From Escherichia phage ETEC-TG, in the sequence record OR786310.1: 64,000 bases of DNA; one strand, given 5' to 3'. A model generated the notes under the pieces. That model ran no database searches, was not told the DNA's origin, and worked only from the letters and a program-made list of their open reading frames with translations. Shown here in pieces: positions 1,205 through 64,000 of this stretch; the stretch's first letter is position 1; the number at the start of each line of letters is the position of its first letter. Position numbers and translations under genes: made by a program.

Positions 1205-1887
1205 TATTTCTCCTTATCTAGAAGATTGTTAGACAAAAACACTGCACGAGCAAAACCACGTGCGGTTAGTGATCTAAGTTGTTTTGTTTTTGCACTAGCT
1301 CCACCTAAGCTTTTCCAACCCCAGAAGCAGCCTATATGATCTACTGGTTTCTTCACTGGTTGAACAAAACCGTTGCCGTGCCAAATACAAGTTTTCTTTG
1401 TATACCCATCACGGGTAGGCATTTTAGGATGAAAGCTTCCTTCCTCTTCAAACAAATACCCACCATACTCATAAGGATCAAAGTAAAAATCGGGTTTACG
1501 CCATAAGGTTGAAAGTTTACCTACTGGGTTCTCAATCATCCAAGGAACATTATATTTGTTACCCAAAGCTTCCACTACACGAATATTAGCTAAAGCTTCA
1601 TCCAATGCCTCTGTGCTGCGTTCGTGTTTGCTACCACTACCTGCTAACATAGTGCAAGGTGGAAATCCAAAAATAATATCGGGTTTAGGTATCCCATGAT
1701 CTTCAGGGTTGAATGTAGAATCTATCCAGGCATTCACATAGGTTATGTTTGGGTGCTCCATCCTAACCTCGTATTTACCGTGATCCCCTTCATCAGCGTT
1801 TACACAAAAACATTTGTGACCTGCTTCGGCATAACGTAACACCATGATCCCAGATCCGTCAAACATAGACAAAACTGTTTTACTCAT
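1204..1887 (-). CDS. putative DNA (cytosine-5)-methyltransferase-like protein
   Basis: Motif I-like SMFDGSG, Cys-containing GFPPCT (PCQ-like) and ENPVG (ENV-like). Start moved to internal ATG (MSKTV) preceded by GGAGG, overlapping upstream stop as ATGAGTAA. Confidence 0.45.
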   Translation of the reverse strand: MSKTVLSMFDGSGIMVLRYAEAGHKCFCVNADEGDHGKYEVRMEHPNITYVNAWIDSTFNPEDHGIPKPDIIFGFPPCTMLAGSGSKHERSTEALDEALANIRVVEALGNKYNVPWMIENPVGKLSTLWRKPDFYFDPYEYGGYLFEEEGSFHPKMPTRDGYTKKTCIWHGNGFVQPVKKPVDHIGCFWGWKSLGGASAKTKQLRSLTARGFARAVFLSNNLLDKEK

Positions 1888-3590: not shown

Positions 3591-3809
3591 TTAACAGCTA
3601 CTACTGTGCCAAACGCCTTGAGAATTAACGACGAAACCATCATCACCTTCACCATAACAAGAAGAGGATTGCCAATCTTCAAAACAGATTGCGTCATTTT
3701 CTAAACTAAGACCAAAACCAGCATCTTCAGCTTCTTTTGTAAGTTCGTCCACTAAAGCCATAATAGCTTGGGCTTTTTCAGTTAATTCTTCAACATTACG
3801 ATCACTCAT
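3591..3809 (-). CDS. small acidic protein, W-x-SSS-C tail family
   Basis: Start taken at internal MSDRN; contains internal WQSSSC and ends QGVWHSSSC. Confidence 0.45.
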   Translation of the reverse strand: MSDRNVEELTEKAQAIMALVDELTKEAEDAGFGLSLENDAICFEDWQSSSCYGEGDDGFVVNSQGVWHSSSC

Positions 3810-4083
3810 TAGTATTTCTCCTCTGGTTGGAAAACTGAACGACAAGCCCACATACTAGCTTCTTTTAAATGTTTAATAGCACAACGGATTTGATCAATAC
3901 GTTCGTATGCAAGATCTAATTCTTTTTCTGTGCCGTCAAAAGACCCATGATATGCTTCACAATACTCTTCCTCTAAAGCTTTGAAGATTAAACCTAAACG
4001 CTCTTCTGCATCTTTAATAGCGTTAACCTTGCCAATCTTATCGTCAGTATGCGCCTTATAACCTTTGATATCTTCGATTCCCA
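3809..4083 (-). CDS. hypothetical protein (GTG start)
   Basis: TAGGAGGT then aaa then GTG gives VGIEDIKGY...; the ATG-extended form in the ORF track lacks an RBS and overlaps the upstream gene. Confidence 0.4.
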
Positions 4084-4095
4084 CTTTACCTCCTA

Positions 4096-4293
4096 TTAAC
4101 AACTTAAAGAAGATGGATGCCAATTTGTTCCAGTATTCTCATTTTCATCTTCTGGATCATAATAGCCACCCATCCCATATTCAGGGGAGAAACGGAAACC
4201 TTTACCAGTCTCATCTGCTAACTGCTCTGCTTCGGCTAAAGCCTCATAAGCTGCTTTTACGGCTTCTTCTACTGTTTTAAACTTGGTCGTCAT
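4096..4293 (-). CDS. small acidic protein, W-x-SSS-C tail family
   Basis: 65 aa ending TNWHPSSLSC. Confidence 0.45.
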   Translation of the reverse strand: MTTKFKTVEEAVKAAYEALAEAEQLADETGKGFRFSPEYGMGGYYDPEDENENTGTNWHPSSLSC

Positions 4294-8303: not shown

Positions 8304-8813
8304 TTAAACAAAATAAAATGGTTGAGAGAGGCCCAAACGATTCTTTGGGTCGTATACATACCAAGCGTATGCTGTCTTATCTGTTCCACCTGCAACAAAC
8401 GAAGGCCGTTCTGAAAGGACTATAAGGTTTGTTGGTGGATTCTTTTGATGGAACTCTCGTCGTTTCTTTGACTCCAAGAAGCCCAACCGAAGAAGATAAA
8501 TACAAACATCCGCCTCTTTTAAGCTCTTTTCCAAGAACTCCATTGCTAACTTAAATGGAGGGTTTGTGATTATAATGTCGGGACGATTTTCCCATTCATG
8601 ACTAAAATAATCTTTACCTTCTTCAAGTTCGCAATATTCTGAACCTTCAGGAAAATGGCGATAAATCGCTTCAGCTTCACCTCTGCAAGGTTCTGCAAAA
8701 ACCCAACCTTCTTCCTTTAGATTTTTGAAATCTATAACACTAAACAAACTATTGATTGCTTTTTGCGGTGTCGGATAATAATCGCTCGTTGGGCGATCAT
8801 AATCTAATGCCAT
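8304..8813 (-). CDS. putative DNA methyltransferase (N6-adenine or N4-cytosine type)
   Basis: DYYPTPQ (AdoMet-binding-like) and NPPF (motif IV of amino-MTases) in a 169 aa protein. Confidence 0.55.
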   Translation of the reverse strand: MALDYDRPTSDYYPTPQKAINSLFSVIDFKNLKEEGWVFAEPCRGEAEAIYRHFPEGSEYCELEEGKDYFSHEWENRPDIIITNPPFKLAMEFLEKSLKEADVCIYLLRLGFLESKKRREFHQKNPPTNLIVLSERPSFVAGGTDKTAYAWYVYDPKNRLGLSQPFYFV

Positions 8814-15592: not shown

Positions 15593-16249
15593 TTAGCCTC
15601 GAAATACTGTTTTTGTTTCCGCCAGGTGCCAATAGAAATCCGCCTTGTTTACAAGAGTGTTGTACACCTCTGGATAAAAATGTTCTTCCTCTTTGTAACG
15701 ATCCGCTGTTTCCCTGATTGACTTAGCTTTATCCTTTAGCCAAGCGAAGTGTGCCTCTTCCTCTGTAGCGAAGTAGCCTAAATGCTTACCTTTACTTCCA
15801 GAAGCTTTTGCATAAATCTTACCATCTTTCCTAACATGTGCTCCTAGTAAGTATTTTCTTTCATACCTTTTAGCATAACTTAAGAGTGTATTTATGTAAG
15901 GAGGAACAAACCTACAATATTCAGGACAATAAACAGTATTTCCTTCAAGAACAAGATCTTTATCTAAAACAAAGCCTTCCACGCTATGTTCTTGATACCA
16001 GTTATCAAAGTTTGAAAAGGTGAACCAAGCATCACACACGGTAACATCTTTATAACCTGGTCTAATGTTTTCCATACGATATGCACGATTAAACATACCT
16101 TTCCAAGCTGCATAAGAAGGGTCTATGAATGTATTAACCCTTTTCCCATTGATAACACCACCTTCCCACAATCTACGTTCAACATCCACAATCAAGGGGA
16201 TTTCTCCCCTCTCTGTGAGAACGGTAACTTTACGTTTACCCTTCTTCAT
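15593..16249 (-). CDS. putative HNH-AP2 homing endonuclease (possibly degenerate)
   Basis: Sits between nrdA and nrdB; C-terminal LGYFATEEEAHFAW is AP2-like; central VLDKDLV...CPEYCRFV resembles an HNH-family core with altered catalytic residues. Confidence 0.5.
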   Translation of the reverse strand: MKKGKRKVTVLTERGEIPLIVDVERRLWEGGVINGKRVNTFIDPSYAAWKGMFNRAYRMENIRPGYKDVTVCDAWFTFSNFDNWYQEHSVEGFVLDKDLVLEGNTVYCPEYCRFVPPYINTLLSYAKRYERKYLLGAHVRKDGKIYAKASGSKGKHLGYFATEEEAHFAWLKDKAKSIRETADRYKEEEHFYPEVYNTLVNKADFYWHLAETKTVFRG

Positions 16250-28674: not shown

Positions 28675-29079
28675 TTATTGAAGTTTAAGTGAACCACGAA
28701 GACGTTTCTCTTGCTGATCACGAATATATTGTGGAACCTCGTGAATTGAATCATTACCGTGCCTATTTTCAACAACTAAAGAGATAACTTGATAACCAAA
28801 CTCTTCAGCAAGAGTTAGATAAGGTTTAAGTTCTTTCTCTGTGGTTGAAGTGTTAGAAACAATAATCTTGTTAAGATTAGATGCCATAGCATCACGAACA
28901 ATACTCTGACACCATGCGTGTGCTTTACCTACATTTTCTGGCTTCCAATCGTAAACACCACTTTCTGTGTAATGGTATTGATCTGCCTCACAGATAGGCC
29001 AATAACCTTCAGAAATAATTTCTGCTACCGTAGATTTACCAGCACCTGAAACGCCACGTAAAATGATAAGTTGTTTCAT
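28675..29079 (-). CDS. polynucleotide 5'-kinase (T4 Pnk kinase-domain-like P-loop kinase)
   Basis: MKQLIILRGVSGAGKST parallels T4 Pnk MKKIILTIGCPGSGKST; later IIVSNTSTT parallels VIISDTN. Confidence 0.65.
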   Translation of the reverse strand: MKQLIILRGVSGAGKSTVAEIISEGYWPICEADQYHYTESGVYDWKPENVGKAHAWCQSIVRDAMASNLNKIIVSNTSTTEKELKPYLTLAEEFGYQVISLVVENRHGNDSIHEVPQYIRDQQEKRLRGSLKLQ

Positions 29080-30012
29080 TTATCCTCCAAAGAAGTTTTC
29101 GATTTTTTCACGTCGCTCTTGCTGATTTAAAGCAGCCCATTGAGTCTTCGTAAAATTATTTCGAATCCATTCTAACAAAGCGTAATATTCTTCGTCAACA
29201 ATTTGTTTGGCATTTTTTGGATTATCCCAAATCAGATCCCACTTTTTATCTCCACCACGCATAAGAAACTTCTTAGTAAGATAGTGTGGTGATTTAATTT
29301 TTAAAAGTAAGTTGAACGGATAGTTTGTTTCACGAACTACAAACCCTTCGTGTTTACAATGTTTAGACATTTCAACAACATCTGAAAACTTAACCATTGG
29401 ATGAACTTCAGGACGCTTAAATTTGGTGACAGAAGCAATTCCATCAAGAGCACCTTCAGGTAACATAAAACTTGTCCCATCAGGATTTTGAATTCTGGCA
29501 CCAATTAAGTATGCACCTGGTTCTTCTTCGACAATATGCGGATCAGAAGGATCACAGATTTCAAACAGGAAAGTTGCTTTTGCACTCTCTGCCCATTTGA
29601 TGAAATGTTCTATGTCATCGCACTCTGAAACAATATGATTCTTTGCAATACTTGCAAAATCTGATTCAAGGCTTCCTGTTGTCGATACAATAAGTTGACC
29701 TTTATATACACCTACAGAGGCCATAAAACCATTTACTTTACGAACCACATCTACAAGTTCATCCGCTGGTAGATCTGTGCCATTCTCAAAACGATTAAAA
29801 ATCTTAGTGAAAGGCCAAATAACAACATTGTCATCAGCATCAACAACGATTCCGCGACATTCTAGAAGACGAGAATCAATGCTCCATAAGTTATCCCAGA
29901 AAACTTTGTTCTTATACTTAAGAACAGATAGACCAGAATACTCTCCTTCTTTATATGTTTTCTTATGAACTAAACCTTTTTCAACCAAATCGTCGCAATT
30001 AAATTTAGTCAC
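29080..30012 (-). CDS. RNA ligase, T4 Rnl1-like
   Basis: LLECRGIVV (T4 ALECRGIMF), motif I KVNGF, motif IV EGFVVRE, motif V LLKIKS. Confidence 0.75.
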   Translation of the reverse strand: MTKFNCDDLVEKGLVHKKTYKEGEYSGLSVLKYKNKVFWDNLWSIDSRLLECRGIVVDADDNVVIWPFTKIFNRFENGTDLPADELVDVVRKVNGFMASVGVYKGQLIVSTTGSLESDFASIAKNHIVSECDDIEHFIKWAESAKATFLFEICDPSDPHIVEEEPGAYLIGARIQNPDGTSFMLPEGALDGIASVTKFKRPEVHPMVKFSDVVEMSKHCKHEGFVVRETNYPFNLLLKIKSPHYLTKKFLMRGGDKKWDLIWDNPKNAKQIVDEEYYALLEWIRNNFTKTQWAALNQQERREKIENFFGG

Positions 30013-33312: not shown

Positions 33313-33408
33313 TTCTTACCTCCTTTGTTATCAAAATAACTTACCAGAACATCGTGAACCACACACATGGCAAAAATCAGAACAATTGTTGTCAGGACCG
33401 GATTCTCA

Positions 33409-33732
33409 CTAATTAGTGCTATCATCTTTAACCACCTCCAATTGCCTTTCGAGTTTGACTTTGTTTGAGAACTGATAATGACACAACTTACATTGCATGT
33501 CAACAATCTGATCGTGATTTAACCCTACAATTTTAACTTCCTTTGCACCATCCCACTCCAAATACTCAAATCCATCCAAATGATTACTCTTGTCCAACAG
33601 GAATGCTATCTGCTGCCATTCAATCTGAATGTCATTTAAATGATATGCTGCACAGAAGATATCTTCATAGTAAAAGACGATCATTGTCATTGCTTCGTCC
33701 AGCACAACTACCTCTTGTCTTGTAAATCTCAT
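33409..33732 (-). CDS. hypothetical protein (first gene of the minus-strand block)
   Basis: 107 aa ORF with RBS AGGAGG, adjacent to the divergent control region. Confidence 0.4.
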   Translation of the reverse strand: MRFTRQEVVVLDEAMTMIVFYYEDIFCAAYHLNDIQIEWQQIAFLLDKSNHLDGFEYLEWDGAKEVKIVGLNHDQIVDMQCKLCHYQFSNKVKLERQLEVVKDDSTN

Positions 33733-33984
33733 TCTAGCCTCCTAAACGCGTCTCTGACGCACTTTTTATATATAAGATGATAAATCACCTTACCTAGTAA
33801 GTAAACTTGCTCTACGAGCCTCTTATGAAGCTTGTGTTATAGGCTATACTATTGCTACCTGTTTAAGCAAGGTTTTTGCACACAGAAAATAATTTTTAAT
33901 AAAACTCTTGACTTTTGTGTTCGAAGTATGCTACCCTAGAAATCTATTAACGAGCGCAGCGAGTTAAGGTTTTAAGGTTGTTGA

Positions 33985-34190
33985 TGTAGTACTCTGTACT
34001 CAAGTACTGTACTCCGTACTAGATTAATAATTATTAAATATTAATAATAAATAATTATTAGATCTAACAAACAGGTACAGTGTATCAGAACTGGTACGTA
34101 CAGATCAACTTCTATCAATTAAAAATAAAATAATAAATTATTATAAATAATACTTGATCTATAGATCGGTATGAAGTACAGTACGGAACA
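33985..34190. repeat. repeat-dense AT-rich divergent control region (candidate bidirectional promoter/origin)
   Basis: Five GTACT within about 32 bp (33989..34020), an AT-rich core with palindrome TTAATAATTATTAA (34021..34063), further GTAC copies at 34075..34101 and 34176..34184, palindrome GATCTATAGATC. Confidence 0.5.
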
Positions 34191-34214
34191 TCTTAACAAG
34201 AATGGAGGTGTGCA

Positions 34215-34400
34215 ATGATTAGTGAGAATCCGTGCAAATGGCATCATGTGCCTATTAAAGATTGTATGTCTTGTAATCCACGTTCTATTTATAACATTGC
34301 ATCTTATGATGATGACAATGTGTTAGACGATGATGAAGGCTGGGAGGATTTAGATTGGACTGGTTATGAAACCAAAAAGGATAAAATTATTCCTGGTTGA
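34215..34400 (+). CDS. hypothetical protein
   Basis: 61 aa ORF with RBS AATGGAGG. Confidence 0.4.
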   Translation: MISENPCKWHHVPIKDCMSCNPRSIYNIASYDDDNVLDDDEGWEDLDWTGYETKKDKIIPG

Positions 34401-34437
34401 CTTAAGATATCCTTCGTGCTAAACTAGAAGTGAGGAG

Positions 34438-34689
34438 ATGCCGATCACTCCCCATTTGGGGTTCGAAGGATATATGCAAAATAGCTTTTATTTTAGGTGC
34501 CGTGCTTGTAATAGGCATTTGACAAACCACTCCAGACGTGATAAAAATGGAGTCATCAAGGAATCAGACCTCTGTTCTATTTGCACAGGTTTGGCTTTTG
34601 ATGATAGTCCCGAAAGGGTTTATCAGCATCAATGTATAACAGACGTTCTCGTGTCAAACTTGGTAGAGGACGAACAACTAACAGATTAG
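34438..34689 (+). CDS. hypothetical Cys-rich protein
   Basis: 83 aa with CRAC...CSIC motifs. Confidence 0.35.
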   Translation: MPITPHLGFEGYMQNSFYFRCRACNRHLTNHSRRDKNGVIKESDLCSICTGLAFDDSPERVYQHQCITDVLVSNLVEDEQLTD

Positions 34690-34698
34690 GAGGAACAA

Positions 34699-34946
34699 TG
34701 TCTCTATTAGAAAAACACGTGTTTGAAGATGGTAACGGCAATGCAGTTTTTCTTTTCCATCCAGAAAAATACACATCTGAAAACAATGGTACAACTTCTA
34801 TTGTAATCACTAAAGATGTTAAAGTTATTGATTTCTTGGCTCTGATGCGAGAGATGGATCTTGAAATTAATACTTTTAACGCAGAAGCTTTGGTTGTTGC
34901 TCTTCTGGAAAAGAAAGATAGTGAAGAAGTAGCAGAATATGCTTAA
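34699..34946 (+). CDS. hypothetical protein
   Basis: Start at MSLLEKH preceded by TTAGGAGGAACA; the upstream ATG in the track lacks an RBS. Confidence 0.4.
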
Positions 34947-34953
34947 ATAACTA

Positions 34954-34983
34954 TTGACAAACGTATCCTTCATATGTTAGGAT
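34954..34983 (+). promoter_or_regulatory. sigma70-like promoter (TTGACA, 18 nt, TAGGAT) upstream of tRNA array
   Basis: -35 TTGACA at 34954..34959 and -10-like TAGGAT at 34978..34983. Confidence 0.4.
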
Positions 34984-35192
34984 ACGTTCATCAAGTGTGG
35001 TAACAGGGTCGTTGACTTTTGTTAAGAGGGGCTTGCACTGCGGTAGTGTTAGAGACTACTTCTTCAGAGGTTAGCTACCAAAGAGGAAAAGGAATAGTCT
35101 CGGCTCAAGAACTTTTACGCTGAAAGTTGGGCTTGGTCTTAGAGAATGTAGCGGTTCTCTACAATCGTCAGCGTCTCTGTTACCACATTTAC

Positions 35193-35267
35193 GGCCCTGT
35201 AGCTCAATGGGAGAGCTGTCGGCTCATAACCGATAGGTAGCTGGATCGAAACCAGCCAGGGCCACCA
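35193..35267 (+). tRNA. tRNA-Met (CAT)
   Basis: Manual cloverleaf: acceptor GGCCCTG/CAGGGCC, anticodon loop CTCATAA, T-stem GCTGG/CCAGC, encoded CCA. Confidence 0.65.
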
Positions 35268-35269
35268 AC

Positions 35270-35344
35270 GTCTTTATGGTGTAATGGATAGCACAGGAGT
35301 CTTCTAAACTCTTAGTCAAGGTTCGATTCCTTGTAAAGACACCA
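35270..35344 (+). tRNA. tRNA-Arg (TCT)
   Basis: Acceptor GTCTTTA/TAAAGAC, anticodon loop CTTCTAA, T-loop TTCGATT, encoded CCA. Confidence 0.65.
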
Positions 35345-35540
35345 GAACATTTTAACATGAATTAGCTCAAGTGATTTGAACCCACTACTGATCATGGTGG
35401 CAGAGAATGAGGCAAGTATGTCAGACATTATAAACAAAGGCCACGGTTATATTAGAAGACATAAATGCTCGAAGAGCACCGTTCGTGGAGAACGGGGGTT
35501 GGTGGAGTCACCATTCATGGTAAAATGTTTTAAAAAACTA

Positions 35541-42463: not shown

Positions 42464-42556
42464 AAATATTTAATATTTTTTAATTTTTCTATTGACAAAA
42501 CAACAAATATCCTGTAGACTAAGATTTATGGGATATCTGTTTTTAAGAGGTTTCAA

Positions 42557-59883: not shown

Positions 59884-62037
59884 ATGAAACAAGCTATATT
59901 TACTGTCACGCGAGACAAGAGAGTAAATGCGAGTTCATTTAACTACACGACTGTTGACGGAACAGCAGTCGCTGGTAGAGATTATATTGCAAAATCGGGA
60001 ACACTTGTGTTCCCTGATGATGCTGATTCTGCTACTATTGTGGTTGAAGTATTTGAACGACCAAAGAACTCAATAGATCTTAACTTCTCCCTCCAAGTTT
60101 CAGGGATTAGTCAAAATAACATGATGGTTGAAACAACCATCAATTGTATTATAACTACTATCCAAGAAAATACTACTCCAATAACTTGGACTACAAAAGA
60201 CGTTAAAATGTTCTCTCCTATGTATTGGACAATAGATTCTCAAGCAACGGAAAGTTGTTCTATTGTATCTCATGGAGACTCTTTTACTGCAAGATTTGTA
60301 AACAGAACAACAGCAGGTTTGGCAGGGGTTATCTGGAGCACAGTTGACAAATATGACCATAAAGGTGTTGGGTATTTGCCTCACACAGATTTAAGTTCAG
60401 AGAAACTTTGGTTTAAAATGGAAATTAGTCAAAACATGCCAGGTTTTAAAGAAGAACCTTTGGTGCCGACTTTGACTGTAACTCTCCTGGATAAAAGTGT
60501 TCATTATGTCAGTTTAGGATTCTACGCTTCAGATATTTCAGAAGATGGTAAAACAGCCACAATAAAGTTAGATTTTGGTAATATCTTTTCTGGCCCTAAT
60601 AATGATATTCCTTTGGATATGAGTGCTGTAGATAATATTTTCTTCTCTTTGATTACAGCAAGGTATGAAAAAATAGAAGAGGTTGTACCTATTGACAGTC
60701 AAGAGGCTTGGTTTACTTTCACTCTTCTTGAACCTACTTCTGGTTACAGTATGATGAAAGTCAGCAACCTTGTCCAGCCTGAACATGATATTCGCATGTG
60801 CACATCTTATGATGATATGTATAACCTGACTCCAGAGAGAGTTATTTATAATACATATGCACTAGGTTATCGTGGAATGATTAACCATTACAACGGAATG
60901 TCTCACTATTATGAGTTCTCATGGAACGGAACATCTTGGGCTTTAAATAGATCTGTTTTCCTGAATCCGGCTACAGAAGCTTGGCTAAATAGTTTCCATT
61001 CTATAGCAAACGAGAAGGGCTACACGATAATGAACTCTTTAAGTTTTGAATTGATGAGCACAGTTTGTCCTGTAGAATGGGTCCAGCATGATTGGAACGA
61101 TGCTCTTGCAGCAACAGGGTATGAACCTCCTAGTTATGTGTTGTCTCCAACTATTGACGAAGGTATGGAATATTTGCAAAATGTTATTAACAAAATAGCA
61201 TCTATTTCGCAAGCTAATAATATTCCAGTTGTCATTCAAATTGGTGAGCCTTGGTGGTGGTATAATACAGCAAGTAAAATGCCTTGCATATATGATTACA
61301 CTACCAAACTGGCATTCAACACAGAAACAGGCTTATTTGCACAAGATGCAGGAACAATAGATAATTATAAAACAGGAACACCGTTTGACGAATACTATGC
61401 ATTTTTGTCTCGTAAACTAGGGTTAAGAGTTACAAAGTTTGCAACAGACACTAGAGCAACTTATCCAGGAGCTAAAGTAACATTGCTGCCATTCTTACCA
61501 TCAATTATCGGCAATGGTTTAATGGAGAAAGTTAACTTTCCGTCTGATTACTACATTCCTGAAGCTTTTGATTTTTATTGTTCAGAGTGTTACGACTGGC
61601 TTCTGGAAGGTAAAATGATGAAAGCATTTGATGCAATTACCATACCACATGAAAAATTAGGTTTTGAATATTCTGATATTCACTATCTTGCAGGTTTTGT
61701 TCCAGATGCTACTCTTGCACCTTTGTATGGCTTTGATCCTGAATCAAACTACCGCACGTATCTTTGGAAAATGATTATAGGTAACATAGTGTTGAACGCC
61801 AATAAGTTCAATGGACTTACACAATATATATGGGCCTATCCTCAAATAATGCACGATTCTATCACGGTAGTTAATTCTCAATCCCAAGTTTTCTATATGG
61901 GTAACGTGCCTTTGAACGCTTATTTACAGGATATCACTCTTAAACAGGTAAATGTTGAGATTGCCACCATAAGTGGAATTACATTAGCCACTAAATCTGG
62001 AGAAGATTTAGTAACAACACAAAAATTTTATATATAG
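59884..62037 (+). CDS. tail-associated protein with N-terminal Calx-beta-like motif
   Basis: 717 aa; N-terminal SFNYTTVDGTAVAGRDYIAKSGTLVFPDDADSATIVVEV resembles a Calx-beta repeat. Confidence 0.4.
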   Translation: MKQAIFTVTRDKRVNASSFNYTTVDGTAVAGRDYIAKSGTLVFPDDADSATIVVEVFERPKNSIDLNFSLQVSGISQNNMMVETTINCIITTIQENTTPITWTTKDVKMFSPMYWTIDSQATESCSIVSHGDSFTARFVNRTTAGLAGVIWSTVDKYDHKGVGYLPHTDLSSEKLWFKMEISQNMPGFKEEPLVPTLTVTLLDKSVHYVSLGFYASDISEDGKTATIKLDFGNIFSGPNNDIPLDMSAVDNIFFSLITARYEKIEEVVPIDSQEAWFTFTLLEPTSGYSMMKVSNLVQPEHDIRMCTSYDDMYNLTPERVIYNTYALGYRGMINHYNGMSHYYEFSWNGTSWALNRSVFLNPATEAWLNSFHSIANEKGYTIMNSLSFELMSTVCPVEWVQHDWNDALAATGYEPPSYVLSPTIDEGMEYLQNVINKIASISQANNIPVVIQIGEPWWWYNTASKMPCIYDYTTKLAFNTETGLFAQDAGTIDNYKTGTPFDEYYAFLSRKLGLRVTKFATDTRATYPGAKVTLLPFLPSIIGNGLMEKVNFPSDYYIPEAFDFYCSECYDWLLEGKMMKAFDAITIPHEKLGFEYSDIHYLAGFVPDATLAPLYGFDPESNYRTYLWKMIIGNIVLNANKFNGLTQYIWAYPQIMHDSITVVNSQSQVFYMGNVPLNAYLQDITLKQVNVEIATISGITLATKSGEDLVTTQKFYI

Positions 62038-62045
62038 GAGTAAAA

Positions 62046-64000
62046 ATGTCAACTACAATTACTAATTTACCCGAAACATCAAAAGTTAATGGTTCTGATT
62101 ACCTGGTTTTAGACCAACCTGATAAGACTGTTAAAAGCACAGTTTCCAACTTTCTTACTGACACTGGGGTGGTTTTAGCCACCCAGTTGAAAGATACAGA
62201 TGGAGCTACCAAGTATCCAGAACTTCAGATTGCACGCTGGCGAGACGAGGGAGATATCAGAGGGTGGGGCACGGAAACAAACGGTGATGTTACCGAAGCA
62301 ATCATTGAGGCGGTAGCGGCGACAAGCGGCACTATCATTGTGCCACCTGGTGACTATGTTGCCACACCTACGCTGGCCGAAGTTCCGGCTGTGCTGAAAT
62401 TGCTGTCCCGCGCTGATTTTCGTGGCAGGTTGACCATTAATCTGCCAGCTGGGACGGTCAATCTGAACGAGCAGACAGTCATAAATTCTAACAGGAGTAA
62501 TCTGTGCAAGGTCATTGGCGTAGCGCTAAACACGAGCGTTACAGGGCTTGTTTCTGTAGCTGGGTCAAGCAAGCAATATTCGATAACTCTGTCCCTGGCA
62601 GATGCCTCGCAGGTGTCAGTCGGTGACTATGCCATCTTCAGGCACGATCTGACGGGAACTGGTTTTTTCCACATACACTGCGGGGGCTGGCGGGTAACGG
62701 CTGTGTCCGGCAATAACGTGACCGTGCTCAACACATGCGTCTTGGATTCATTCCCTTCGTCAACCGTTACCGGTGGATCAGTCTCCATTATCAAGTCCGT
62801 TCTGAAATACACCGGCTGTGATGGGATTAGACCGGAGGGCGGCGACTGTATCGGAATTATTGATAATGTCGCCATCGTGGGTGATTACAACCTTGCTACC
62901 GGCGCAGGGACAATCGGTGCTCACGGCGTAATATCCTCAACACCCGTAGTAGTCACCGACGCCGCCAACGCATCCAACAACGTAGCGAATATGGCGGCAG
63001 CGCTGGCCCTGGGACGAAATATTGCAATCAGTGCCTGGGGTGAGCAAGGGCTGGCAGTGTCGGGTCGCTCTGCGCTTGTGTGTAACTTCATCGCATCCTG
63101 TGCCAACCGTAAGCGTGGTATTTATGCGGAAGGTGCTCATATACGCGGGAAATTTATGATCGCCTCCGGAAACGGAGAGGACGGCATTATTTCAGATACC
63201 ACTGGATTTGTGCAGGCTGCATATGCCGTTTGCTCGGGTAACGGATTAAACGGGTTCTGGTCAACAAACCTCTCTCTTATTGCGGCGGCAAGGGGAGTGG
63301 CTTGCTGTAACAAAACAAATGGTGTGGAGGCAAGGGGGCAGACAAGGCTCGCATTTGATCTCGGCCTTTCCTACGGAAACGTTCTAAACGGTGTCAGCGC
63401 CTCTGATGGGGGCATGATTGACTTTGATGGCGGCATGTCAAGAGACAATCTCGTTGACGGGATCGCAGCGACATACAATGCAGTAGTTGACGCGAACAAC
63501 GCCTCCAGTACCACCAATGGTCGTTACGGTACTAACGTGACCTCCGCGTGCATTATCATTTCAGGGACTGGTACTATATCTGGGAATACAGGGGCGGATG
63601 TTCGTGATAACGGCAATGGGATGGTTGTCCGACCAGACGGCACGATCTACCCATTCACTGGGGTCGCACAGGGTAATCTGTCGCTAAGAAACACCGTCAG
63701 CGGCGCGGGGGTTGACATTGTTCCTACAAGTATAGGTGACTTAATTCTGAGCTTTAAAAACTCAGCAGGCGGAACGCTTAACCCGTTATACAACTTCAAA
63801 GCCGACGGTACTCAGTACCCTCAAAATGACGCGACGCAAAGCCTTGGGCGTGCCGCTAACCGATACAATGTCGGTTTCTTCGCTGGCGGAACACAGTCAA
63901 CTTCAGATGCCACACTTAAAGACCCTATCCGGGAGTTCAATCAGGCCGAACTTAATGCAGCAATGCGAATCGCAAAAATGCTGGGTTTCTGGACATGGCT
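62046..64000 (+). CDS. tail fibre/tailspike protein, 3' end beyond window; GC-rich distal module
   Basis: RBS TAGGAG, N-terminal adapter-like motif, then from about 62290 visibly GC-rich and Gly/Ala/Thr/Asn-rich sequence; open to the window end. Confidence 0.55.
   Translation, partial: MSTTITNLPETSKVNGSDYLVLDQPDKTVKSTVSNFLTDTGVVLATQLKDTDGATKYPELQIARWRDEGDIRGWGTETNGDVTEAIIEAVAATSGTIIVPPGDYVATPTLAEVPAVLKLLSRADFRGRLTINLPAGTVNLNEQTVINSNRSNLCKVIGVALNTSVTGLVSVAGSSKQYSITLSLADASQVSVGDYAIFRHDLTGTGFFHIHCGGWRVTAVSGNNVTVLNTCVLDSFPSSTVTGGSVSIIKSVLKYTGCDGIRPEGGDCIGIIDNVAIVGDYNLATGAGTIGAHGVISSTPVVVTDAANASNNVANMAAALALGRNIAISAWGEQGLAVSGRSALVCNFIASCANRKRGIYAEGAHIRGKFMIASGNGEDGIISDTTGFVQAAYAVCSGNGLNGFWSTNLSLIAAARGVACCNKTNGVEARGQTRLAFDLGLSYGNVLNGVSASDGGMIDFDGGMSRDNLVDGIAATYNAVVDANNASSTTNGRYGTNVTSACIIISGTGTISGNTGADVRDNGNGMVVRPDGTIYPFTGVAQGNLSLRNTVSGAGVDIVPTSIGDLILSFKNSAGGTLNPLYNFKADGTQYPQNDATQSLGRAANRYNVGFFAGGTQSTSDATLKDPIREFNQAELNAAMRIAKMLGFWTW

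Follow-up and report, generated by a model that had tools for sequence, protein, structure and literature searches.

What purpose is served by a repeat-dense, non-coding stretch of about 480 bp that separates two oppositely transcribed blocks of genes? The question is raised by positions 33,733 to 34,214 of Escherichia phage ETEC-TG (sequence record OR786310.1), within the 64,000-nt stretch of DNA that was analysed and that is called the window here. Leftward genes lie to the left of 33732, and rightward genes begin at 34215 with three small open reading frames (ORFs) followed by a tRNA array. The original prediction, made from the letters alone, saw in the gap an origin of replication and/or a protein-bound bidirectional promoter switch. 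On the evidence of consensus matches and conservation, the region is very likely a divergent early promoter region with tandem rightward promoters, and the best overall explanation, an early control region combined with a selected protein-binding array, is assigned a probability of roughly 0.5. Under this explanation host RNA polymerase would start leftward into a block of nucleotide-metabolism and replication genes, and rightward from two tandem sigma-70 promoters, P_R1 and P_R2. P_R1 would give an untranslated leader of ~270 nt that opens with a conserved box, while P_R2 would lie 25 nt upstream of the ribosome-binding site (RBS), with an A/T tract before it (tract 2) acting like an UP element. 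In the core clade of these phages a local duplication would have enlarged the P_R1-P_R2 interval and left it with a second A/T tract and three groups of GTAC repeats, and loss of GTAC elsewhere would most plausibly be driven by GTAC-specific restriction. The array would then comprise putative binding sites of a DNA-binding protein which, when bound, would cover the P_R2 -10 and block or pause polymerases coming from P_R1, and so would time early rightward transcription or shut it off.

The promoters provide the broadest evidence (Table 1). More than 60 Phapecoctavirus phages, that is, phAPEC8-like myoviruses of E. coli of ~150 kb within the subfamily Stephanstirmvirinae, match the region and its flanks at 95-99% identity, and the equivalent junctions were compared in phiWec179, phiWec190 and PsgM04F (a divergent Phapecoctavirus lineage), in phi92 and FKP3 (Justusliebigvirus), and in Citrobacter phage Tr1. 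The bidirectional promoter of the original prediction is supported, in that predicted sigma-70-type promoters with the right spacing face in both directions and the rightward pair keeps both its position and its sequence in five lineages of the subfamily. P_R1 and P_R2 both agree with the sigma-70 consensus in hexamers and spacing, and we infer promoter activity from this agreement together with their recurrence. P_R1 reappears as TTGACx, 17-18 nt, TG(C/A)TACCCT in phiWec179/190, PsgM04F, phi92, FKP3 and Tr1, and P_R2 has homologues just before the first gene, TTGACT-17-TAGAGT in the phiWec lineage and phi92 and TTGACC-17-TACACT in FKP3, each with GATC or something similar in its spacer. Blocks of the GATCTAACAGAC type are common to the phiWec lineage, phi92 and Tr1. 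Between the P_R1 -10 and the ATG lie 242-277 nt in every genome compared, although the gene that follows differs, being a 61-aa ORF with tRNAs here and a phosphoribosyl pyrophosphate synthetase operon in phi92, FKP3 and Tr1. On the leftward side, the AGGTAAGGTGATTTATCATC block beneath the first candidate is kept in phiWec-like phages and phi92, the second candidate aligns with the stronger TTGTGT-16-TGCTATAGT of the phiWec lineage, and the leader of the first leftward gene contains a small hairpin. Many similar TTGAC(T/A) promoters are found on the coding strand across the window.

The A/T tracts are consistent with the same arrangement. Tract 2 stops 2 nt short of the P_R2 -35 (34154), the position expected of an UP element, and the third-longest A/T run of the genome (42458-42488) likewise abuts a TTGACA -35 at 42492. 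Given that the genome's only other long A/T run also adjoins a -35, the simplest reading of tract 2, from its placement, is that of an UP-like element of P_R2. Other lineages possess a single pure A/T run whose length varies among genomes from 16 to 35 nt, and in phiWec190, phi92, FKP3 and Tr1 a run of 23-35 nt occupies the same place as tract 2. Several strong sigma-70 promoters in series at the start of an early region recall T7 A1/A2/A3, and an A/T tract directly upstream of a -35 recalls the rrnB P1 UP element, although the phage promoters discussed here belong to a divergent pair, are predicted from sequence, and have between them ~250 nt of non-coding DNA of conserved length with a single-copy box and, in one clade, a GTAC array. 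The promoter architecture itself is ordinary for a lytic phage. As a separate observation, an exact TATAAATA, the T4 late-promoter consensus, lies at 34142-34149 in tract 2, 5 nt upstream of the P_R2 -35, and is one of six copies in the window; a related motif has been reported at the late genes of phage rV5 (PMC3606486).

What distinguishes the core Phapecoctavirus clade is the material between the two rightward promoters. In the multi-lineage alignment the five GTACT copies and tract 1 are insertions found in this clade only, and nearly all of its genomes, phAPEC8 and metagenome contigs among them, keep the GTACT array. The whole equivalent spacer of the phiWec lineage is free of GTAC. In phi92 the segment equivalent to the array contains three ATACT, in FKP3 two GTACs fall in the matching part of the spacer and a third in the P_R2 region, and in Tr1 the P_R2 spacer contains a single GTACTCCG; opposite the GTAC at 34098, the phiWec lineage, phi92 and Tr1 have ATACT. 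Tract 1 plus GATC is a direct copy of tract 2 plus GATC (39 nt, 72% identity, 103 bp apart), and in light of this direct repeat and the pattern of insertions the clade-specific part appears best explained by local duplication and slippage. Absence of the repeats from related genomes had been named as the observation that could overturn the original prediction, and the outcome is divided: the repeats are conserved within the clade and not beyond it, unlike the rest of the module. Confined as they are to one clade, they therefore cannot be the conserved core of the region's role.

Within that clade the array is unusual. Every repeat that the original prediction named (the five GTACT copies, the palindromes, the GTAC(A)G copies) is present, and its remark that about ten GTACs in 200 bp exceeds expectation was an understatement, the count being ten within 196 bp for a word that is otherwise the most avoided. 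Five, all GTACT, start at 33989, 33996, 34004, 34009 and 34016, and the others at 34075, 34094, 34098, 34176 and 34181; the last two overlap the P_R2 -10, and the P_R2 spacer contains the second predicted palindrome, GATCTATAGATC, at 34156-34167. The window holds 53 GTACs, as against 225 expected from base composition, 186 from a second-order Markov model and 166 +/- 12 from dinucleotide-preserving shuffles, which is the lowest observed/expected ratio of all 256 tetramers (0.29). At the density outside the cluster 0.135 GTACs are expected per 200 bp, and the Poisson estimate for at least ten is ~5e-16. The ten are not ten independent events, the left array being an irregular tandem repeat and GTACGTAC and GTACAGTAC short local duplications. 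The second-densest 200-bp stretch of the window has 3. Likewise 536P1, the complete 149,471-bp relative that served as reference for whole-genome counts, has 137 GTACs against 443 expected and its sole cluster here (10 per 200 bp, and 3 at most elsewhere). An IMG/VR search for the GTACT array pattern returned six contigs, all unrelated, and in none of them did a cluster of this kind occur in a similar setting.

Other parts of the predicted geometry fared less well. The A/T-rich core with a 14-bp palindrome exists in so far as TTAATAATTATTAA lies at 34024-34037, where, amid A and T alone, a palindrome of this kind is no surprise, but there are two pure A/T runs and not one. The supposed inverted orientation of the repeats holds for their flanks only, with two CTGTAC to the left and three GTACAG to the right, since GTAC is itself palindromic. 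The symmetry around an A/T core is not there; the order is repeat group, tract 1, repeat group, tract 2, repeat group. The four GATCs in 110 bp have a density that is equalled elsewhere in the window.

The case for a function of the array derives from what happens to GTAC elsewhere. The observed/expected ratio is 0.29-0.31 in the core clade, lowest in rank of the 256 tetramers, and 0.90 in E. coli K-12 (a 50-kb sample), 0.77 in a phi92-like and 0.60 in a phiWec-like phage; the avoidance is that of the phage clade and not of the host. Outside the cluster 13 of 38 GTAC sites differ in 536P1 (1.8% divergence; median for other tetramers 7.1%) and 5 of 17 in DIJ07P2 (2.3% divergence; median 8.7%), and in both comparisons this difference rate (29-34%) is the highest of any tetramer. 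The cluster sites are intact in both genomes, 10 of 10 each time; had they decayed like other GTACs, such retention would have a probability of ~0.016 in the former and 0.03 in the latter, for lineages that are not fully independent. All ten are present in Schickermooser, UP17 and two metagenome contigs (by count) and in ESCO13 and Ro121lw (from the alignment), nine in phAPEC8 and anhysbys, and eight in dw-ec, which has a 13-nt deletion. Because GTAC is lost elsewhere and ten nevertheless persist here, the array would seem to be selected; the evidence for selection is moderate, and on balance the array is probably kept by it. As an aside, the avoided 4-bp palindrome differs by lineage: a phiWec-like phage is without CTAG in 46 kb, and in phi92-like phages mainly GGCC is avoided.

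Table 1. Features of the divergent junction and its flanking genes, in window coordinates
Feature	Position	Strand	Basis or remark
First leftward gene, 107 aa, conserved CKLCxYQF motif	33409..33732	-	ORF list; phrog_14390 match
Leftward promoter candidate TTTACT-17-TATCAT over conserved block AGGTAAGGTGATTTATCATC	33777..33805	-	Consensus scan; function predicted
Second leftward promoter candidate TTGCTT-16-TATAGC	33843..33870	-	Read from sequence; function predicted
P_R1 (predicted): TTGACT, 18-nt spacer, TGC-TACCCT extended -10 (TGCTACCCT)	33908..33937	+	Sequence; predicted start ~33944
Leader box TTAA-CGAGCGCAGCGAG-TTAAGG, possible small 5' hairpin	33947..33969	+	Unique in window and in 149-kb relative
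TTAAGGTT, 8-nt tandem repeat, 2 copies	33964..33979	.	TRF and alignment
GTACT x5 array, spacings 7, 8, 5, 7	33989..34020	.	Core Phapecoctavirus clade only
A/T tract 1, 38 nt without G or C, clade-specific	34023..34060	.	Longest pure A/T run of the genome
Middle segment: GATC, CTAACAAACAG, GGTACAG, GGTACGTACAG, GATC	34061..34106	.	Sequence
A/T tract 2, 36 nt, UP-element-like	34117..34152	.	Second-longest pure A/T run of the genome
P_R2 (predicted): TTGATC, 17-nt spacer, TACAGT	34154..34182	+	Consensus match; predicted start ~34189
AGTACAGTAC, perfect 10-bp inverted copy of GTACTGTACT (34004-34013)	34175..34184	.	Repeat search
RBS GGAGG (34204-34208) and first rightward gene (61 aa, Cys-rich, ATG 34215)	34204..34400	+	ORF list; phrog_26411

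Several observations nonetheless weigh against an early control region with a selected array, and some of them lend weight to a different view, in which slippage and local duplication in a tolerant spacer would have produced GTAC repeats that serve no function and persist by chance or through youth. The array is clade-specific and its spacing, 5-8 bp, is irregular and out of helical phase. It adjoins an 8-nt repeat of variable copy number (TTAAGGTT, present in 3 copies in anhysbys, UP17 and Ro121lw and annotated as repeat_region in anhysbys) and has itself suffered indels, namely the 13-nt deletion of dw-ec and a 63-bp variant in nieznany. In the core clade the GTAC columns show 3 events in 40, as against ~28 in 442 other intergenic columns, a substitution density like that of the rest of the spacer, and constraint is seen solely relative to GTAC sites elsewhere, meaning that the sites are not purged rather than that they are more conserved. 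Further, the test of retention consists of two related genomes with a partly shared history, and the promoters are consensus matches with conservation as their sole support. The proposed protein likewise lacks a candidate, the flanking early proteins having no recognisable DNA-binding domain in PHROGs, Pfam or NCBIfam and occurring also in lineages without the array; adjacent genes specific to the clade were considered as binders (Acb2/Tad1-like, HNH nuclease, kinase, RNA ligase) and none is a regulator. That the repeats are a mere by-product is, however, unlikely, given that all ten sites were kept in the two genomes in which 29-34% of other GTACs differ, that every examined genome of the clade carries the array, and that any pressure removing GTAC should act on the array too.

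What kind of pressure this might be is suggested by an anomalous relative. In BI-EHEC (OL505078) almost all GTACs of the array appear as ATAC or GTAT, and over 40 kb 19 of 37 GTACs differ from the window, 17 of them by G:C-to-A:T changes. Within coding sequence 6 of 11 GTAC changes are non-synonymous, compared with 11% of its other substitutions. The assembly of this genome drew on Nanopore reads alone, processed with a base-caller of 2020 (PMC8686590), and the simplest reading of the changes is that they are motif-specific miscalls at a modified base; a few of the differences are real, being common to 536P1. BI-EHEC had been considered as evidence that the array may lose its GTACs and was rejected as such, as a Nanopore-only assembly whose changes look like miscalls. 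The deposited sequence probably contains dozens of such errors, and miscalls of this type would imply that the BI-EHEC virion DNA is modified in GTAC context. The miscalls also suggest that GTAC-specific modification, and hence restriction, occurs among hosts, and restriction of this kind would explain the purge of GTAC. Two small, orphan methylases are encoded in the window, at 1207-1887 (-), C5-cytosine-like with FDGSG and PPC motifs (phrog_757), and at 8307-8813 (-), amino-methylase-like with an NPPF motif (phrog_799); Pfam and NCBIfam gave no match to either, and PHROGs confirm only 'DNA methyltransferase'.

A modified GTAC invites the thought that the array is a sensor of GTAC modification and thereby an epigenetic memory of the last host. 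If this were true, the ten copies, placed on the P_R2 -10 and in the P_R1 leader, would make early promoter activity or protein binding depend on how the genome was methylated on entry, and this in turn on whether the previous host had a GTAC-specific restriction-modification system; the BI-EHEC miscalls suggest that such hosts exist. The GATC clusters of oriC and P1 pac offer a likeness, a short palindromic tetramer concentrated in a regulatory non-coding segment and flanking a central region. The word here is nevertheless GTAC and not a Dam site, no GTAC methylase is known for the phage, and GTAC is strongly avoided elsewhere in the phage genome whereas GATC is not (observed/expected 0.96). 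A sensor of this kind is accordingly regarded as improbable, and markedly so.

Protein binding is the most likely use of the array. That a putative protein occludes P_R2 and blocks read-through from P_R1 can be proposed only tentatively from the positions of the repeats. One familiar protein with half-sites of the right type is TrpR, and the array could in principle be a set of its operators, as five GTACT, one GAACT and four AGTAC half-sites are present and the E. coli K-12 mtr operator, TGTACTCGTGTACTGGTACAGTGCA, with three GTACs in 18 bp, shares GTACTC, ACTGGTAC and GGTACAGTG with the phage arrays (8-9-mers). The likeness ends with these GTACT/AGTAC units. The defining 18-bp dyad of a TrpR operator needs outer GTACs 14 bp apart and the spacings here are 12, 13 and 15; the best score with a four-operator matrix is 5.6, against 23-26 at trp, aroH, trpR and mtr; and GNACT-N8-AGTNC finds no match even with one mismatch, all of which makes TrpR a very improbable occupant. 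Patterns for Fur, LexA, DnaA, IHF, Fis and oriC 13-mers were none of them above chance in the region. A LexA-like CTGT-N8-ACTG was discarded as a side effect of the GTAC repeats.

Alternatively, the repeats might act as RNA. GUAC repeats could fold the P_R1 leader through a helix between 34004-34013 and 34175-34184 and so furnish a processing site, a stabiliser or an attenuator. The 10-bp inverted repeat is perfect and predicted folds do use the helix (z-scores -2.5 for RNA and -4.1 for DNA), but these scores are modest given the abundance of a self-complementary word, the partners of the helix are absent from the sister lineages, and phAPEC8 carries a change at 34005 without compensation. Rfam has no family that matches in the spacer; a search of 33400-35400 at a permissive threshold matched tRNAs alone. 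RNAalifold on five lineages retained a single small 5' hairpin of 8 pairs around the leader box, with a weak covariation term (-0.2). An RNA element built from the repeats is consequently a poor prospect.

The other half of the original prediction, an origin of replication, finds no specific evidence, given that GC skew follows transcription, that there are no iterons and that the DnaA box is at chance. The proposed check by GC skew does give a cumulative minimum here, the global one, but in 536P1 the sign of the skew flips at all four strand switches, and because it changes with every switch of the transcribed strand it is uninformative about an origin; skew that follows transcription has also been reported for the related phage rV5 (PMC3606486). 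A search for iterons (at least three direct repeats of ~17-22 bp in helical phase) found none, only two-copy families and the GTACT units. One relaxed DnaA box (33874-33882) compares with 1.5 expected, and IHF, Fis and oriC 13-mers had no match in the region.

A transcription-primed origin could share the same DNA with the promoters. RNA from P_R1 would serve as primer or in an R-loop, the A/T tracts would unwind, and the leader box, on the displaced strand, would be a single-strand initiation signal. The promoter-then-A/T layout is conserved in length across the subfamily despite the differing downstream gene, the A/T tracts lie 75 and 170 nt downstream of P_R1 in non-coding DNA, the two of them (38 and 36 nt) are the most extreme A/T runs of the genome and qualify as potential unwinding elements, and the adjacent block encodes replication and nucleotide-metabolism genes. 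The T7 primary origin consists of the promoters 1.1A/1.1B and a 61-bp A/T-rich region, and T4 oriF and oriG of a promoter and an unwinding element, so that a promoter followed by a short, extremely A/T-rich segment is common to all; here, unlike there, the promoters are of host type and the A/T tract sits at the UP position of the next promoter, and it is adequately explained by that position. The GTAC array, which was the main argument for an origin, is missing from sister lineages in which the remainder of the module is present. On this balance a primed origin is unlikely, but its probability is not negligible.

The leader box is a further point in its favour. Its core, CGAGCG(C/A)AGCGAG, is invariant or nearly so in the five lineages and lies just past the predicted P_R1 start. 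The single-copy sequence CGAGCGCAGCGAG (33951-33963) is identical to a 13-mer in an ori-proximal segment of ColE1/pMB1, in the same sense as the primer RNA; as a query this 61-nt segment was covered to 80% or more by 2,129 plasmid records, 933 of which reached an identity of 99% or higher. The local hairpin at the phage box is weak. In ColE1 the 13-mer lies ~150 nt past the RNA/DNA switch and near ssiA, the PriA-dependent primosome assembly signal, whereas the phage box occupies +5 to +20 of the transcript. The likeness to ColE1/pMB1 thus comprises a promoter that reads into non-coding DNA and 13 identical nucleotides, and the phage is without an RNA I/RNA II control region or extended similarity. 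A match of 13 nt also carries the risk of having looked in many places. That ssiA exists downstream of the ColE1 ori is documented (PMC3167613), and this phage family, unlike ColE1, has its own primase-helicase, as reported for rV5 (PMC3606486). The match is best treated as a lead to where these phages might start replication and not as a test of it. Searches of IMG/VR with P_R1 plus box and of metagenomes with the box gave mostly chance matches, the relevant ones being phi92-like, phiWec-like and two core-clade contigs.

Clusters of short palindromes flanking a central segment are also found at the pac site of phage P1, which the present region recalls, and the record of phage nieznany starts inside it, so that a packaging site or genome terminus might be entertained. 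Nieznany (MN850598) both begins and ends in this intergenic region, with a 209-bp overlap in which one copy is without 63 bp (34080-34142); these ends are an assembly overlap of a circular contig that includes an indel variant, either a population variant or an assembly artefact. In BME3, a phi92-like phage of the sister genus, a 342-bp terminal repeat lies in a different non-coding region (PMC12210895), whose counterpart in 536P1 is at ~92-95 kb, ~50 kb away and outside the window. A pac site or terminus is therefore the least credible of the roles considered. BME3 (PP239276) also has, at ~146.9-147.3 kb in a non-coding stretch of ~3 kb, near-perfect Fur boxes (ATGATAATCATTATC and a second copy).

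An early control region with a selected array has implications beyond this phage, as members of the phAPEC8/phi92 group are widely isolated for therapy and biocontrol. Literature searches turned up no transcriptome for this group and no experimental mapping of an origin, an early promoter or a regulator in it, and the region is undescribed in them and in GenBank annotations, the latter marking at most 'repeat_region'. What appears to be new is that a restriction-type word purged elsewhere is retained here as an array, and that the single-copy box matches ColE1. The result is a testable map of the main early control region, in which the parts common to the subfamily are set apart from the additions of one clade. 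More broadly, a dense array of a word that is lost faster than nearly any other may be regarded as a natural experiment that marks the array as selected, and this contrast should make a binding partner findable by simple pull-down.

The region is one of two divergent junctions among the four transcription blocks of the genome, as seen in 536P1. The syntenic leftward block of an annotated relative contains ligases, exonucleases, ribonucleotide reductase, thymidylate synthase, two methylases and dTDP-sugar genes. Homologues of the 107-aa gene head the leftward block likewise in phiWec-like phages, phi92, FKP3 and Tr1, and Pfam and NCBIfam have no match to its product; a search for related loci with this protein found none from the single sequence and three from an alignment. 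The 61-aa rightward protein is without a Pfam match, and its gene is followed by small ORFs and the tRNA array. Three leftward loci of the window are absent from the syntenic block of PsgM04F: an Acb2/Tad1-hairpin protein at 3809-4123 (-), likely a sponge for immune-signalling nucleotides; an HNH endonuclease at 15593-16249 (-), between the two ribonucleotide reductase genes; and an AAA_33 kinase with a T4 Rnl1-type RNA ligase at 28675-30012 (-), likely for tRNA repair. At the right end of the window (62000-64000) GC content rises to 0.51, identity to 536P1 falls to ~85% and five GTACs occur in 310 bp (63508-63818), and this end may be a mosaic or foreign segment. Finally, near-identical records are labelled Campylobacter phage B15, Acinetobacter phage ABPW7, Pseudomonas phage PsgM04F and Klebsiella phage ZCKP1, and the host labels of some of them are doubtful.

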